Shown: positions 9,011 to 21,308 of the stretch, piece after piece
How the letters are laid out: every line of letters begins with the position of its first letter
How positions within the stretch are numbered: position 1 is the first letter of the stretch
NCBI GenBank assembly: GCA_964610875.1
Contig: CAZSWP010000011.1
Coordinates: 37,967 to 87,661, forward strand
From: an uncultured archaeon
Lineage (GTDB): Archaea > Asgardarchaeota > Thorarchaeia > Thorarchaeales > Thorarchaeaceae
DNA: 49,695 nucleotides
Reading direction: 5' to 3'
Position numbers and translations under genes: made by a program
Notes under the pieces: model-generated
Database searches by the model: none
Told to the model about the DNA's origin: nothing
The model's input: the letters and a program-made list of their open reading frames with translations, nothing else

Positions 9011-12000
9011 TTGACATGGAGGACTGTCAAATTGCACACACGCGTGAAAATTGCACTACGACAAGCAGTTGTTATTGCAGCAATAATGATGTTAGTATCA
9101 TCAGCTTTGCTGACTCCAGTTTCAGCAGTCTCTGTACCGGAGAAAATTGAAATTCAATCTCCTTCCCCTGTTGATCCTAAGGTTCACATCTATTATGATG
9201 GGAAAGACCCGGATATGCAGATATGTTCTATACAAACCTCTCGACCATTGGTTATGCGAGGAATAGATGTTCTGCGATTCAAAATAGATTCTTTGCTCAA
9301 TCTCGAGTATGATGTATCCCTCTCCAAACCTGATTATGCTGTCTATTTCTTCCAGAGTAGTCAATCTGGAGTTGAGATTGGTTTGGAATCTTATACATGG
9401 GCAGAGGTAGCTGAAATCGTAAAGGACAATCCCAGTGTCCAGCACGTTTTCGGTGTAGGAAGTGCTTACAATCTTCGGGACACTCTTGGCAATGCTACAA
9501 ATCTGCATGTTGAGAATGTTGAAGTTATTGATATCAAACTTGGAGTTCTCTATGTGCAATGGAGAATTGCTGACCAACTATCCAAATCTAGTAATGATGA
9601 TTGGGCTGAAACAGGAGAGCAATTGAGAGAAGACGTGATTTCTGATTTTAGTGATAACATCAACGAGTACTTCTCCAAAAGTGTCTATCCAGAAACCTAT
9701 ACTGGTGAGCGTGTTCCTGATCCCATCACTGATCCTCGTCTTACTGAGCGATGGGTAGAAGAGATCCCTCAATATGATGATAATGGGGAAGAGCTTCAAC
9801 CAGTGATGAAAATAGGAAATCTCGCTGCTGAAGAAGATTATATTGATCTTCGTTCTATGACTCCAGATAGTGGTGTTGGTGGGCCTATGGGTTGGTTGAT
9901 TGAGACCGTCTTCTATTCTCTCATTGACCTAGGCTTTCAGGACCTAGCAGTACATGTTGATGCAGCAAGACGATTGAATACTTACATTATGTCCGTTGTG
10001 GAAAACATCCAAGAAGATGTTGAGGAATGGTATGTTGAGCAAGGGTTTACCATTGTTGATAACAACTTCACAGTTTCTTCACTACTGCCAAGTCAAATGT
10101 TCGAGCTCTGGTCTTTGGGTGACCAGCTCATTCTTGATGCATGGTATGAAGTAGACGACTACATTGGTGAGTTCTTTGAACGCATCATCAATAGACCAGT
10201 ACAGAACGACCTTACTGGCCTCTGTCCTGTCTTTCTCTTTCGACTTGGTACTCCCATGAACCTCGGGTCCTCATTTGCGAGTTTTGGTGCAGTATTGAGA
10301 ATCAAACTACTACCTGATTTTGAGATTGACAAAGAGCCCTTCAAGACCTTCATGAATGATGCAGTCTTTGGAGACCTCGATTTGGATGACATGTCGGACA
10401 CTGAGACTGCGTTCCTTGAAGTTAGAAAATTTGTAGATGTCATTCCTGTCATGGACATCGATTTGGGTATCTGTGCGTTCCTTCCAACAGGTGATGATTG
10501 GACACAAAGTATTCTGGGTGCTTTCACCCTTGACTTCTTCGGCTATGCTCATCTACAATTAGCCTTCCCACCAGTTGATGCATCAAACACTGACCGTGCA
10601 TTCATTGATGTTCGTGAGTGGGGTCTTCGCTTTGAGCTAGATGCCAGCCTCACACTCACAGTTTCTGCTTTCCTCGGAGGTGCTGGCCATGGTGTATTGA
10701 GCACGATTCTCGACTGGCTATCCGCACTACTTCAGGTCTCTATTACCCTGACTCTCTCCATCGTGTTTGAGATAAGTAAAAAGTATCAAGGTCAGGGATT
10801 ACCAGCTCTCTCCACTCTGTTACTTGACATTATTGTAGGAGTCACCCTGTACATCAGACTCCTTATCGTGATATTCCGAGGAACTTTCAAAGTAGGTATG
10901 CGGTTTGAACAACGGTCCGGAATATTATCGGGGTCGTCCTTGGCGGCCCTGGCAAATGACCCTGACCCGGTCATTCAGCATACCCTGAGTGATATAGCTA
11001 CCTCGAAGATCGCGTTCTATATCACAATTTACTGTTCACTTTACTTTGCCGTAGACTTGTTCTTCACTTCATGGGGTACACACTTCGGAGGTCCGTGGGA
11101 GACCACTATCGAACTCTCTGGATCTTGGGGTTCCAGTGATTATGGCGATGAGGCTGCCGACCTCACTGACTCCGACTCAGACGGTCTTCCAGATGCATTC
11201 GAGGAGAGAATGAACACGATGTACGGGGGCACGTATATTGACCCGGCATCAGCGGATACGGATGGCGATGGCTTAGGTGATAAACTCGAATTGGAGTTGA
11301 ACACTGCGCCAAATGATGCAGATACCGATGACGATCTTCTCACTGACTATGAAGAACACATGACCTTCCTCACCATGCCGCTCATAGCTGACACTGACAG
11401 AGACAATCTGACTGACTATGAGGAATGCATCACCTATGGCACTTCGCCATTCAAGATAGACACCGATGGTGACATGCTCTACGACTGGTATGAGATCAAC
11501 ACCGTTTATGATGTTTCACGCACTTCTGGTTCCTACGGTGCAGTTGACGCTGTGATGATTGGTGGCGTAGTTTATGATGACCGCACTGATCCTCTCAATC
11601 CAGACACTGACAACGACGATTTACTCGATGGAGAAGAGGGTGAGAACGGTGTACAATATGCTAATGAAACTATGATTGAAGATAGCGACTTTGTCTGGTT
11701 CACACACACTCATCCATTAGACGCAGATACCGACGATGATTCAATCCGCTGGGAGGCTGTATCTCCTGGAGAGTACCAACGTGGGGCTGATAATCTCTTT
11801 ATGTGGGACATGAATGACGGAGTCGAGATTCTTGGCCAATATGCTACCATTCCAGATGAGGAAGGATATCCAATAACGATTCTGACAAAGACTAATCCCT
11901 GTAATGCGGACACGGACTATGATTCTGGTCCACTACTTCCAAACACTGATGGTAAAGAACTGAGTACAATACCTCAGACTGACCCCGCTGACGGTGATAC

Positions 12001-19506: not shown

Positions 19507-21308
19507 ATAAGAAAACAAGAACTCTACTTTGCCTAATGGCGATATTCGGAATTTCAACTTTACTTGTGGTAACTCCTCCACAAGTAACAGCAGGAAGTAG
19601 CATTGATGCGGACACATTGCGAACGATGCTTACCGAGTTCATTGATGCATGGCAATTCGCTTTGGAAAAGAACGAATCCGAAGTAATGAAAGAAGTATGG
19701 AATAACGCGCTTCATATGAAAAAACAGTTTGAAGTGTCTGGTGTTGAAGACTTCGATTATCGCGACACTTTCAACTTTACAAATAGTGAGAGTGTCTTCG
19801 GTCCACTGGTGATGACAGAAGAAGAAGTTAGTTCAAACCTACGTAACTATATGTTCCAACTTCTGTATTCAGATATAGAAGCTGCGTGTGAGGTATCAAT
19901 TCTGGACATCATGCTATTCCGTGTCTTTGATTCTCTGATTGTCGATTGGATTGATTGGGGATTCGGAGGATTCTGCAATGGATTTGCGCAGGCATGTCGT
20001 GACTTCTTTGAAGACCCAAACGAGATACCACTAGGCTTTGACTATACAAAGGAGCTGCCCTCTCCAAACCCCAATCAAACAATTGCAGAAGAGACTGGAG
20101 GAGATGTAGTAGAAGCAATCATCAAGGATTACGTTCTTTGGAAAGGTTCTGGTGCTTTCTTCAATCCTAACCACTTGAAAAATTGGTTGTATATCTTCTT
20201 GGGGATCCCAACATCACAGAGTGGTATATCAAACTCAATTGAAGTGCAGAAGATTACTGAGAATCTTTTAGTCACCTCCCCCTTCTTCACACCTGCTGTT
20301 GTTCTTCTAATGAACCCATGTTGGGAGGGAATGGAGGATGGCTTTGGTCACTTTGTGAATGTCTACGATTATGACGTAAATTCCAATGGCTCAATTACGC
20401 TATATATTTACAATAATTGGGATACATGGAATTCATCTTGGGGTAAGTATGATGATTGGATTCTGGTTGACTCGAATGGAGAGTTTAGAGGTACTCATCA
20501 AGAACCTGATAATTCATATTCAAGGCTTTGTTACTATGCGGAAACTTCAGAGTACAACACGATTCTGACGACATTGATTGAACTCTTGCCGGATCTACTT
20601 TCACTAGGTCTCTTGAGTCCTGTTGATGTTGCTGTTACTGACCCACTTGGAAGGACCGTATCTGTGGATGATGATAATAACATCGAATATGGATTCCCAG
20701 CAGTTGCTTTTGCAGATTCAGATGGACACAAGGACATGCTAATTCCCTTCGTACCGGGATTACCTTATACTATCAACCTGACTGGAACTGATGTGGGTGA
20801 GTATACTCTTCAGACACACAGGTATGTGGATGGTCGAATCATAACAAAAGAGATTGTAGGTCACACAGAACCTGGAGAGAATGATGTATACACAGTCACA
20901 CTTGAAGGTGAAGGTATCAATCTAGCTAAGGCTGGTGTTGTCCTCCATGCTCCCACAATTCTATCAGGTTCGGCTGTCGAGCTTGAATGGACAGAGTACA
21001 ATGAACCTGATTTTGACCATTACGAGATCTACTACTCAACATCAGTCAATAATATCGGAGTGAAATATGGGGCAGACATCACAGATGCTGAAACCACATC
21101 CACAATAGTTAGCGGTCTTTCAGGCGAAACAACTTACTTCTTTACAGTGAGAGTTGTAACCGATAGTGGCGACTACACTGACTCGAATAAAGTAGGCGCT
21201 GTACTCCCTGAAGATTACACAATGCTACTATACATCGCAGCCGGTGTTGGTGGCTTCGCAATCTTCCTTCTTGTGATAGTGGTCTTCCGGCGAAGAAGAA
21301 GCAAATAG
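19503..21308 (+). CDS. Membrane-anchored papain-like cysteine peptidase / transglutaminase-like protein with FN3 domain
   Basis: Signal peptide; GGFC158NGFA, GH283FVNVY and IYN304NWD match the papain-fold Cys-His-Asn/Asp order; SPVDVAVTDPLGR domain; FN3 (LEW...DFDHYEIYY...GLSGETTYFFTVRV); C-terminal TM plus RRRRSK. ATGA overlap with the upstream gene. Confidence 0.72.
   Translation: MNKKTRTLLCLMAIFGISTLLVVTPPQVTAGSSIDADTLRTMLTEFIDAWQFALEKNESEVMKEVWNNALHMKKQFEVSGVEDFDYRDTFNFTNSESVFGPLVMTEEEVSSNLRNYMFQLLYSDIEAACEVSILDIMLFRVFDSLIVDWIDWGFGGFCNGFAQACRDFFEDPNEIPLGFDYTKELPSPNPNQTIAEETGGDVVEAIIKDYVLWKGSGAFFNPNHLKNWLYIFLGIPTSQSGISNSIEVQKITENLLVTSPFFTPAVVLLMNPCWEGMEDGFGHFVNVYDYDVNSNGSITLYIYNNWDTWNSSWGKYDDWILVDSNGEFRGTHQEPDNSYSRLCYYAETSEYNTILTTLIELLPDLLSLGLLSPVDVAVTDPLGRTVSVDDDNNIEYGFPAVAFADSDGHKDMLIPFVPGLPYTINLTGTDVGEYTLQTHRYVDGRIITKEIVGHTEPGENDVYTVTLEGEGINLAKAGVVLHAPTILSGSAVELEWTEYNEPDFDHYEIYYSTSVNNIGVKYGADITDAETTSTIVSGLSGETTYFFTVRVVTDSGDYTDSNKVGAVLPEDYTMLLYIAAGVGGFAIFLLVIVVFRRRRSK

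Follow-up and report, generated by a model that had tools for sequence, protein, structure and literature searches.

In Pseudomonas, the periplasmic cysteine protease LapG cuts LapA, a giant calcium-binding adhesin. The locus described here, from the genome of a member of the Thorarchaeota (Asgard), is a closely linked group of three genes; two of the products appear to be giant surface proteins with calcium repeats, and the third a papain-fold cysteine enzyme tethered to the membrane. It resembles the LapG/LapA system in that giant calcium-repeat surface protein and papain-fold Cys-His-Asp enzyme are encoded together; however, the head of the third protein has no sequence relationship to LapG in Pfam, the cell envelope is of another kind, and a partner of the LapD/LapE type is absent. 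The original prediction had drawn on LapG and the transglutaminases as models, and the comparison holds as an analogy only: the head had no match to the LapG-type or transglutaminase-core models of Pfam at E-values up to 10, LapG was not among its 50 best structural (VIA) matches, which does not count against a relationship, and GP42 (Z 5.1, a middling score) was the sole transglutaminase among them.

A second point of comparison is Peptidase_C39_2 (PF13529) and the C39-like papain-fold peptidases, which belong to MEROPS clan CA. The putative enzyme shares with Peptidase_C39_2 the order Cys, His, Asp/Asn, a GFC at the start of the helix, a strand of His followed by hydrophobic residues and, some 20 residues further on, an Asp/Asn, and its structural matches to C39 domains have Z-scores of 5.5 to 5.8, again middling. 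In contrast to that family, however, it carries about 60 helical residues inserted before the Cys helix, lacks a Gln at position -6, gave no hmmscan match at E-values up to 10 and aligns over its C-terminal half alone. Moreover, in place of a fusion to an ABC exporter, the domain is predicted to be extracellular and membrane-tethered.

The two giant proteins also recall described surface proteins. As in integrin alpha, FG-GAP propeller blades with calcium loops are present in protein 2 (Pfam FG-GAP and FG-GAP_3), but this protein has no transmembrane (TM) segment or cytoplasmic tail, and no beta-subunit-like or VWA-type Pfam match was obtained in the three proteins. Protein 1 shares TSP3_bac repeats with the TSP3 adhesin CglD of Myxococcus; its partial match to the NCBIfam CglD model (146 bits) covers the repeats alone and is far below the 400-bit cut-off.

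Organization and distribution of the three genes

The window is the whole stretch of DNA that was analysed, 49,695 nucleotides in length, and contains three co-directional ORFs on the plus strand. The following features were identified.

9011..13657, + strand: gene 1 (protein 1, P1, A'), 1548 aa from TTG 9011; signal peptide, head, TSP3 stalk, TM anchor, basic tail
9128..11155, + strand: protein 1 head, residues ~40-715 (~680 aa), homologous to the heads of Asgard-wide A proteins
11168..13435, + strand: TSP3-type Ca-binding repeats (DxDxDG..D..E), residues 720-1475 (about 22 by regular expression; Pfam PF18884)
13478..13564, + strand: protein 1 C-terminal TM, residues ~1490-1518 (Kyte-Doolittle 2.39), then a Lys-rich tail
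13639..13657, + strand: gene 1/gene 2 junction (sequence), Shine-Dalgarno-like GGAGG (13639-13643) 10 nt upstream of the ATGA stop/start overlap (13654-13657)
13654..19506, + strand: gene 2 (protein 2, P2, B'), 1950 aa; signal peptide, FG-GAP blades, NHL propeller insertion, no TM anchor
13822..14709, + strand: N-terminal FG-GAP blades, protein 2 residues 57-352 (BLASTP against canonical B; Ca-loop motifs)
14941..16353, + strand: NHL-repeat propeller insertion, protein 2 residues ~430-900 (Pfam NHL 7.4e-37, Vgb_lyase 1e-21)
16591..19353, + strand: middle domain (residues 980-1164) and C-terminal FG-GAP blades (~1307-1900) of protein 2 (BLASTP; Pfam FG-GAP_3, FG-GAP)
19490..19506, + strand: gene 2/gene 3 junction (sequence), GGAGG (19490-19494) 8 nt upstream of the ATGA overlap (19503-19506)
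19503..21308, + strand: gene 3 (protein 3, P3, C), 601 aa; signal peptide, papain-fold domain, beta-sandwich, fn3, TM anchor, RRRR tail
19764..20552, + strand: predicted papain-fold (C39-like) catalytic domain, protein 3 residues ~88-350 (model, VIA, hhalign, conservation)
19782-19784, + strand: codon of the invariant Asn94, protein 3
19974-19976, + strand: Cys158 codon TGC, protein 3
20349-20351, + strand: His283 codon CAC, protein 3
20412-20414, + strand: Asn/Asp304 codon AAT (Asn here), protein 3
20616..21206, + strand: protein 3 beta-sandwich stalk, Ig-like 372-476 and fn3 485-568 (model; Foldseek; Pfam)
21222..21290, + strand: protein 3 C-terminal TM, residues 574-596 (Kyte-Doolittle 2.64)
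21316..21359, + strand: terminator-like hairpin (21316-21346, 10-bp stem), then a T-run (~21352-21359) (folding)

The original prediction had described three exported proteins joined by ATGA overlaps and closed by a single terminator, with C-terminal anchors on proteins 1 and 3 and none on protein 2, and had called the calcium (TSP3), FG-GAP and NHL repeats. These observations were confirmed by the sequence, folding, hydropathy and Pfam analyses that follow, and the interpretation attached to them was partly supported. The hairpin folded at -18.6 kcal/mol (z = -3.99), a value that none of 200 shuffles reached, and was overlooked by a generic terminator scan because its loop is 11 nt long. Hydropathy analysis revealed an N-terminal hydrophobic signal in each protein and a C-terminal hydrophobic segment with a basic tail in proteins 1 and 3, and in protein 2 neither a C-terminal hydrophobic anchor nor any TM segment beyond the signal; the hydropathy and the signal-like N-termini suggest that the products are located at the cell surface. 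The Pfam scan gave TSP3_bac in protein 1 (PF18884, 3.1e-23, 81.7 bits against a gathering cut-off of 25), FG-GAP and NHL in protein 2 and fn3 alone in protein 3. Eleven Ca-loop motifs were counted in protein 2, with 9 of them in the middle and C-terminal FG-GAP region.

The start of gene 1 is ambiguous among TTG 9011, TTG 9032, which corresponds to the 1541-aa database record of this gene, and GTG 9044, which yields the best signal peptide. The head of protein 1 had no Pfam or PDB sequence match. Conserved hydrophobic stretches were observed by hydropathy within this head, at residues 566-621 and 667-685.

The trio is lineage-specific and limited to a subset of a single Asgard family. Of 85 other genomes of this family, 15 encoded protein 3, as a single copy; outside the family, 314 sampled Asgard genomes yielded no more than two marginal matches at E ~0.01. 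Strong orthologues of protein 1 (E < 1e-170) were also encoded in 14 of the 15 genomes bearing protein 3. Gene order 1-2-3, proposed earlier as a check on the coupled unit, was retained in all 17 other loci examined, that is, in L001 to L006 and in 11 further genomes where the observation was that the C-terminus of protein 2 lay directly upstream of protein 3. In L001 to L006, the trio genes were near-constant in size and the flanks were unrelated; the 4-nt overlap of genes 1 and 2 recurred in L001, L002, L004, L005 and L006, and the junction of genes 2 and 3 in orthologous loci showed either the identical overlap or a gap of 6-13 nt. The genes are a genuine coupled unit of three, and a reading of them as mere neighbours with no common function is scarcely credible in the face of stop/start overlaps, a single terminator and an order that never varied among the 17 other loci, for all the differences in their flanks.

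Relationship to the Asgard-wide A/B pair

The original prediction knew of no archaeal equivalent of this system. As far as published descriptions are concerned this stood, since none was found of the trio; however, a paralogous gene pair, A/B, occurs in about a quarter of the sampled Asgard genomes, and the trio is therefore not without archaeal relatives. No published description of the pair was found either. Paralogues of the protein 1 head, in ORFs of ~2100-2250 aa with 22-31% identity, were present in 98 of 400 Asgard genomes, and two segments of the head matched A-type ORFs with E-values from 1e-6 to 1e-21. The three A-type loci examined had TSP3 repeats in A and a giant FG-GAP gene (2254+ to 2731 aa) directly downstream, and the two canonical B proteins translated in full (P0118 and P0119; 2665 and 2731 aa) ended in a C-terminal TM segment and a basic tail.

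In three BLASTP blocks, with identities of 35%, 26% and 27%, protein 2 followed the N-terminal half of B colinearly: residues 57-352 correspond to B 168-468 (35%), residues 980-1164 to B 547-731, and residues ~1307-1900 to B 884-1352. For residues 353-979, BLASTP aligned nothing in either P0118 or P0119, and NHL repeats had no match in the scanned parts of the canonical B genes. Pair and trio have in common homologous A heads, a TSP3 stalk and a C-terminal anchor in A or protein 1, as well as the gene order and the tight coupling at the first junction. They differ in that protein 1 lacks ~470 residues of the canonical A heads, while protein 2 carries the NHL insertion and lacks ~1300 C-terminal residues of B, including its anchor. 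Moreover, the pair comprises two genes with a self-anchored B and no protein 3-like gene downstream, whereas the trio has an unanchored protein 2 and a third gene for the papain-fold enzyme.

Proteins 1 and 2 are best regarded, on these alignments, as shortened paralogues of the A/B pair, and protein 3 as an addition. Three features are specific to the trio, namely the gene for the enzyme, the inserted NHL repeats and the loss of the anchor from protein 2; the genomes that carry the trio also contain the canonical pair. The architecture and origin proposed here for the trio are very probable.

Loss of the protein 2 anchor and gain of gene 3 go together, which raises the question of whether protein 3 replaces the anchor, as a transpeptidase or transglutaminase-like cross-linker that covalently attaches the anchorless protein to protein 1, to the enzyme or to a different component of the envelope. 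Papain-fold enzymes do include transglutaminases, and GP42 was matched as noted above. However, the best structural and profile matches of protein 3 are to hydrolases (C10, C47, C1 and C39-like), Transglut_core is absent from its Pfam results, and the last ~50 aa of protein 2 vary among orthologues, so that no conserved signal for sorting or cleavage is evident in the tail. Such an attachment function is improbable, and a hydrolytic role for protein 3 is considered below.

The papain-fold domain of protein 3

The head of protein 3 had no Pfam or PDB sequence match (for residues 60-375, none by hmmscan at E-values up to 10). An AlphaFold model of this N-terminal domain, built on an alignment of 61 sequences (pLDDT 78.8, pTM 0.82), indicated a papain fold, and the head is thus, according to the model, a papain-fold domain that was previously unclassified. 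Cys158 (model residue 99) opens helix 99-111, His283 (224) is at the start of strand 223-233, and residue 304 (245) immediately follows the paired strand 239-244. Among the 50 best VIA matches, nearly all were papain-fold proteins with Z-scores from 8.5 to 4.6, including the C-terminal domain of a T6SS effector, interpain, SpeB, staphopain, cathepsins and C39 domains; since the tool rates Z-scores of 5-8.5 as middling, the case for the fold rests on the uniformity of this list and not on any one match. The Foldseek list was likewise dominated by the papain fold, with every E-value at 0.001 or above. Behind the head, the stalk was modelled at pLDDT 75-90 in the full-length model, with fn3 tandems as its Foldseek matches and a Pfam fn3 match of 2.5e-07, and the C-terminal TM segment was present in 22 of 22 aligned homologues.

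Profile comparisons by hhalign related the domain to two families. The first is an unnamed, mostly bacterial Cys-His-Asp family (alignment A3) that has no Pfam model and carries the signature G[RL]CGGMA ... HQV[LV]AYGYD ... YD[NP]N; here the probability was 99.1% (E 1.4e-18) over ~200 columns, and the FxFxN motif and all three presumed catalytic positions (Cys, His, Asp/Asn) were aligned. The A3 family differs from protein 3 in its low identity (15-24%) and its other architectures, several of the members read having no signal peptide or having a hydrophobic hairpin, and none of them is of known function. The second comprises Thorarchaeal Peptidase_C39_2 domains, matched with probabilities of 85-89% (E 6.5e-6 for the 85% match) over the C-terminal half alone, where His283 and residue 304 fell on the invariant His and Asp of the family. 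Topology and profile alignments together suggest that Cys158, His283 and residue 304 are mutually adjacent.

An intact Cys158/His283/Asn304 triad in a papain-like enzyme had been predicted from the sequence, and its residues are indeed present, with Cys and His placed as in papain-fold enzymes. Conservation of the residues and co-occurrence of the genes had been set in advance as the points on which the prediction would stand or fall, and both were found. Cys158, His283 and Asn94 were invariant across the 61 sequences; all full-length homologues retained Cys158 and His283, Asn305 was invariant, and position 304 was occupied by Asn or Asp only. The Gln expected six residues before Cys158, the usual oxyanion position, is absent. 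The invariant Asn94 lies in an FxFxN strand, which may be likened to the Y-x-W-Q strand of Peptidase_C39_2, and is a candidate for the oxyanion residue.

The missing Gln would also agree with a pseudoenzyme, in which the head binds and positions protein 2 without catalysis, and so would the long insertion of helices (~60 residues in the model) that separates the Cys helix from the first strand. Nevertheless, two families with only 15-24% identity to each other retain Cys158 and His283 without exception, and position 304 admits no residue but Asn or Asp, a pattern typical of live active sites; a mere docking subunit is very unlikely, and protein 3 is probably catalytically active.

Proposed function of the surface assembly

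We tentatively propose, at slightly less than even confidence, that the trio is one operon for a cell-surface assembly of part of the Thorarchaeota, which derived from the A/B pair and in which the enzyme acts on its partners. The three proteins would be produced together and then exported. In A', a shortened A, some 22 TSP3 repeats form the stalk of the head, with a predicted C-terminal membrane anchor. B' retains the N-terminal ~1350 residues of B, that is, the FG-GAP propellers, with one or more NHL propellers added, and lacks the C-terminal ~1300 residues and the anchor; A' may bind this anchorless protein and hold it at the surface non-covalently, as A presumably holds B. C, the added gene product, would carry its divergent C39-like papain-fold domain on an Ig-like and fn3 stalk tethered on the external side of the membrane, with Cys158 as the nucleophile, His283 as the base, Asn/Asp304 as the orienting residue and possibly Asn94 as the oxyanion residue. 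It would be catalytically active, using its thiol to hydrolyse peptide or isopeptide bonds, and would act in cis on the co-expressed partners, and the outcome of cleavage would be partner maturation or release of B'.

That the substrate of C is A' or B' is possible but rather doubtful. Many unrelated extracellular proteins that have no giant partners carry comparable papain-fold domains, so the neighbours are not necessarily the targets of the enzyme. In an alternative of this kind, the propellers and the TSP3 stalk would bind external polymers or particles, and protein 3 would be a nutritional or remodelling peptidase for captured external proteins or peptides rather than for proteins 1 and 2. 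The family is found on unrelated secreted or anchored proteins with LGFP, SLH, LRR, fn3 and MIR binding modules; the haloarchaeal-type relative P0079 combines enzyme, beta-sandwich and TM segment with no giant neighbours; and the tail of protein 2 is devoid of a conserved cleavage or sorting motif, all of which would be in keeping with capture and digestion. We nonetheless regard this alternative as unlikely, because the enzyme gene is strictly linked, and coupled in translation, to both giants in the 17 other loci and occurs nowhere else in those genomes, an arrangement more to be expected of a dedicated partner than of a general peptidase.

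The three-gene unit and its distribution

The unit consists of the following three genes, all of which lie on the forward strand:

9011-13657, + strand: gene 1, open reading frame of protein 1 (1548 aa)
13654-19506, + strand: gene 2, open reading frame of protein 2 (1950 aa)
19503-21308, + strand: gene 3, open reading frame of protein 3 (601 aa)

Both junctions are ATGA stop/start overlaps (13654-13657 and 19503-19506), and a GGAGG lies 8-10 nt upstream of each downstream ATG. Downstream of gene 3, a 10-bp hairpin (21316-21346) precedes a T-run. The hairpin has a folding energy of -18.6 kcal/mol (z = -3.99), which no shuffle out of 200 equalled. 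The original prediction of a three-gene unit joined by ATGA overlaps and closed by a single terminator was thus confirmed at these coordinates. Moreover, the unit is self-contained because its upstream neighbour (6841-8427) is encoded on the opposite strand and its downstream neighbour (21371-21976) runs towards it. The start of gene 1 is ambiguous among TTG 9011, TTG 9032 (the start of a 1541-aa database record) and GTG 9044; with the last of these, the signal peptide is classical and ends in VSA.

The three-gene synteny implied by the original prediction was also borne out. The gene order was retained at six loci (five assemblies and one metagenome) with unrelated flanks, where the products measure 1541-1629, 1939-1982 and 598-607 aa and the first junction is the same 4-nt overlap. 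Another 11 genomes encode the C-terminal end of a protein 2 orthologue immediately upstream of a protein 3 orthologue. In a sample of 400 Asgard genomes, the N-terminal head of protein 3 was detected once per genome in 15 of the 85 other genomes of the same family and as a single copy in the genome of the window itself; among 314 genomes of other Asgard families it was not found, save for two marginal matches at E ~0.01. In 14 of the 15 genomes it was accompanied by a strong orthologue (E < 1e-170) of the protein 1 head; the remaining one is a fragmented assembly. Set beside this conserved order and joint occurrence, the reading that the three genes are unrelated neighbours is extremely improbable. 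One other genome holds an additional, incomplete protein 3 head in a 318-aa open frame (G336:C115:31912-32187, minus strand); this copy spans profile positions 214-299 only (E 2.9e-28).

The genes upstream of the trio vary from genome to genome. In the window, positions 1-6692 hold an 895-aa ORF, a 690-aa ORF on the opposite strand and a 208-aa ORF, and the same set (895, 664 and 211 aa) stands beside the trio in genome G324 (locus L020, 13823-19485). An 'integrin-like' Asgard family that always adjoins tubulin/FtsZ genes has been described (PMC9258230); this family seems to be another gene of the trio's neighbourhood, distinct from both the trio and the giant pair discussed below, and the 895-aa gene may be a candidate for it. 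The 580-bp gap upstream of gene 1 also contains a 62-aa ORF (8468-8656, + strand) whose hydrophobic N-terminus closes with a lipobox-like IVCG and whose tail is very acidic and rich in Glu. It was considered as a fourth, upstream component and rejected, as it had no counterpart upstream of the trio at other loci.

Derivation from an Asgard giant surface pair

No known prokaryotes are closer to eukaryotes than the Asgard archaea, whose cell-surface molecules are, to our knowledge, almost entirely unassigned. Protein 1 carries a signal peptide, a head of ~680 residues, ~22 TSP3-type DxDxDG repeats by motif count in residues 720-1475 (Pfam TSP3_bac, 3.1e-23), a C-terminal hydrophobic segment (1490-1518) and a Lys-rich tail. 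The head had no relative in Pfam, NCBIfam, PDB or ESM Atlas searches. Protein 2 begins with a signal-like N-terminus and comprises FG-GAP blades with 11 Ca-loop motifs and a central NHL-repeat block (residues ~430-900); hydropathy revealed no hydrophobic segment beyond the N-terminal signal. A sorting or cleavage signal in its tail was considered and dropped, as the last ~50 residues were unconserved among six orthologues. All three proteins are acidic and contain N-x-S/T sequons, features expected of archaeal surface proteins, which suggests that they may be located at the cell surface.

Weaker matches of the protein 1 head (22-31% identity, in two separate segments) led to ORFs of ~2100-2250 aa, some of ~4850 aa. 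Such ORFs, termed A-type, occurred in 98 of the 400 Asgard genomes, in many families and in closed genomes. At three A-type loci examined (L024/L026 in G135, L023/L027 in G138 and L025/L028 in G315), a TSP3-repeat protein of 2078-2220 aa is directly followed by an FG-GAP protein, termed B, of at least 2254 and up to 2731 aa. Two of the host genomes (4.36 and 6.04 Mb) are closed and belong to other Asgard families than the window's; the third is Thorarchaeal and lacks the trio. The two fully translated B proteins, of 2665 and 2731 aa, have a C-terminal TM segment and basic tail. Downstream of these canonical pairs, no protein 3-like gene was present; the genes there are unrelated (radical SAM, DUF4130 and FeoB, or FtsX/ABC), and radical SAM/HHH, DUF4130 and FeoB genes are common to both closed genomes.

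BLASTP demonstrated that protein 2 is colinear with canonical B: residues 57-352 correspond to B 168-468 (35% identity), 980-1164 to B 547-731 and 1307-1738 to B 884-1352. The intervening NHL block (residues 353-979) had no BLASTP counterpart in canonical B, and B continues for ~1300 residues beyond the end of the protein 2 match. Protein 1, in turn, lacks the ~470 residues that part the two matching head segments in canonical A. The C-terminus of protein 3 was considered as a descendant of the lost B C-terminus and rejected, with no BLASTP similarity between them. Furthermore, trio-bearing genomes also have a canonical A-type gene, and therefore the trio is an extra, diverged copy rather than a replacement. 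In the most fitting description, the trio is a three-gene Thorarchaeal branch of the Asgard giant surface pair to which a dedicated enzyme has been added, and we consider this architecture and origin very likely. The locus shows that the widespread pair is open to remodelling, in which an anchor was lost, NHL propellers were gained and a papain-fold enzyme was acquired. A search of the literature on Asgard FG-GAP, thrombospondin and integrin-type proteins returned no description of the pair or the trio.

In the genome of the window (G000), the canonical A-type gene was seen only as fragments: a 207-aa open frame with 50% identity to an A head (G000:C23:40654-41106, minus strand) and a TSP3-rich 1498-aa frame at a contig start (G000:C53:1-1500). 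The gene is probably split by assembly breaks.

The papain-fold domain of protein 3

Protein 3 is composed of a signal peptide (VTA/GSS), the head, two beta-sandwich domains, a TM segment and an RRRR tail. The second beta-sandwich is an fn3 domain (Pfam, 2.5e-07). The middle one was examined as a PPC-like (pre-peptidase C-terminal) domain, an assignment that was rejected, as neither it nor the equivalent regions of its relatives had any Pfam match even at E 10. The head gave no significant match in Pfam, NCBIfam or PDB sequence searches, passed no Pfam threshold and met only unnamed clusters in the ESM Atlas feature search.

A word-indexed search recovered 39 homologues with 42-60% identity, all in Thorarchaeota-labelled records, one of them labelled Lokiarchaeota, and a profile search run exhaustively on 1.84 billion representatives contributed no more than weak, distant matches. 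These distant relatives have the motifs G[RL]CGGMA, HQV[LV]AYGYD and YD[NP]N in common. An alignment of such proteins from public metagenomes, here called A3 (members P0075-P0117), represents a broad, mostly bacterial family with the same motifs and an additional FxFxN. By hhalign, the protein 3 head matched A3 with 99.1% probability (E 1.4e-18), aligning the FxFxN motif, Cys158, His283, and Asn304 with the family's Asp. The A3 family matched neither Pfam nor PDB sequences and appears to form a hitherto undescribed papain-fold branch; the present analysis thus defines a broad, unnamed Cys-His-Asp enzyme-domain family outside Pfam and PDB sequence coverage. In two members examined at full length (P0075 and P0078), the first strand and the Cys helix are separated by a helical hairpin that is strongly hydrophobic, and the neighbourhoods of two distant relatives (P0079 and P0086) gave no hint of function.

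An alignment of 22 homologues shows no variation at C158, H283, N305, C129 and H224 and either N or D at position 304; in the merged alignment of 61 sequences, invariance is confined to N94, C158, G160 and H283. Every full-length homologue, including 11 read from genomes, retains the Cys and His, and the Asn/Asp toggling at 304 is as expected of a third triad residue. A Gln six residues before Cys158 is absent, and the invariant Asn94 may take the role of this missing oxyanion residue. Protein 3 is probably catalytically active; that it is instead a non-catalytic docking subunit is very unlikely. C129 (window 19887-19889) and H224 (20172-20174) are invariant in the trio orthologues and not in the wider family, and a metal site or regulatory thiol is possible.

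A first, full-length model of protein 3, built from an alignment of 22 orthologues, was useless for the active site because pLDDT fell below 50 over residues 91-220; submitted to Foldseek, this model matched fn3 tandems only. The AlphaFold model of the head from the 61-sequence alignment reached pLDDT 78.8 and pTM 0.82. In this model, Cys158 begins a helix and His283 a strand, and residue 304 stands at the end of that strand's partner in the hairpin. A structural aligner search against 48,161 PDB representatives gave an almost wholly papain-fold list, led by BtaeB, a T6SS effector C-terminal domain (Z 8.5), and including interpain A and SpeB (Z 7.5) and staphopain C (Z 7.0), the individual scores being middling on the aligner's own calibration. 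Further matches were cathepsins, C39 domains, ZUFSP, pseudomurein endoisopeptidase and one transglutaminase. Foldseek with the head model gave the same picture with weak E-values, and an ESM Atlas shape search led to a 457-aa archaeal family (TM-score 0.66 by query) as well as to a cluster bearing the name 'Peptidase C39-like'.

Peptidase_C39_2 domains gathered from Thorarchaeal genomes for comparison aligned by hhalign with the merged alignment (85% probability, E 6.5e-6) and with the distant A3 family (89% probability), both matches being limited to the His/Asp half, in which His283 and residue 304 pair with the invariant His and Asp. The papain-fold call rests on the uniform match list, the topology of the residues and these profile alignments. 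The head is accordingly a papain-fold domain of an unnamed family, new within the fold, and the predicted papain-like fold with a candidate Cys158/His283/Asn304 triad stands, with Asn or Asp at 304. By sequence models, protein 3 is a member of neither the LapG, transglutaminase nor Peptidase_C39_2 families. A cross-linking or attachment role, which would compensate for the lost anchor of protein 2, is improbable.

Possible roles at the cell surface

In the most likely reading, the three products would meet on the outer face of the membrane, where the anchorless protein 2 may be retained by protein 1. Protein 3 would then be an active thiol hydrolase of peptide or isopeptide bonds acting on its partners, either processing them or releasing protein 2. 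That protein 1 or protein 2 is the substrate is plausible and somewhat doubtful; unlikely, in turn, is a capture-and-digest role on external substrates. A complex prediction of protein 2 (residues 1300-1950) with protein 3 (60-372), run without controls, scored 0.00, which speaks neither for nor against binding.

A more specific form of the partner-directed reading would make protein 3 a dedicated sheddase or sortase-like enzyme, tethered to the membrane, that sets whether the anchorless, integrin-alpha-like protein 2 stays on the TSP3-stalk protein 1; we consider it quite unlikely. If true, the trio would be a regulated adhesion/release switch on the Asgard cell surface, an analogue of the bacterial LapG/LapA system that arose independently, from the Asgard giant pair. 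More generally, an enzyme of 600 aa with a clear active-site Cys could show how the giants are processed or held at the surface.

The head of protein 1 contains conserved hydrophobic stretches at residues 566-621 and 667-685. The surrounding region (residues ~545-700; window 10700-11100) has highly conserved hydrophobic segments with Kyte-Doolittle values up to 2.5 and embedded charged residues; a membrane hairpin and a greasy beta-sheet are both conceivable, and which of them it is bears on the topology model of the protein.
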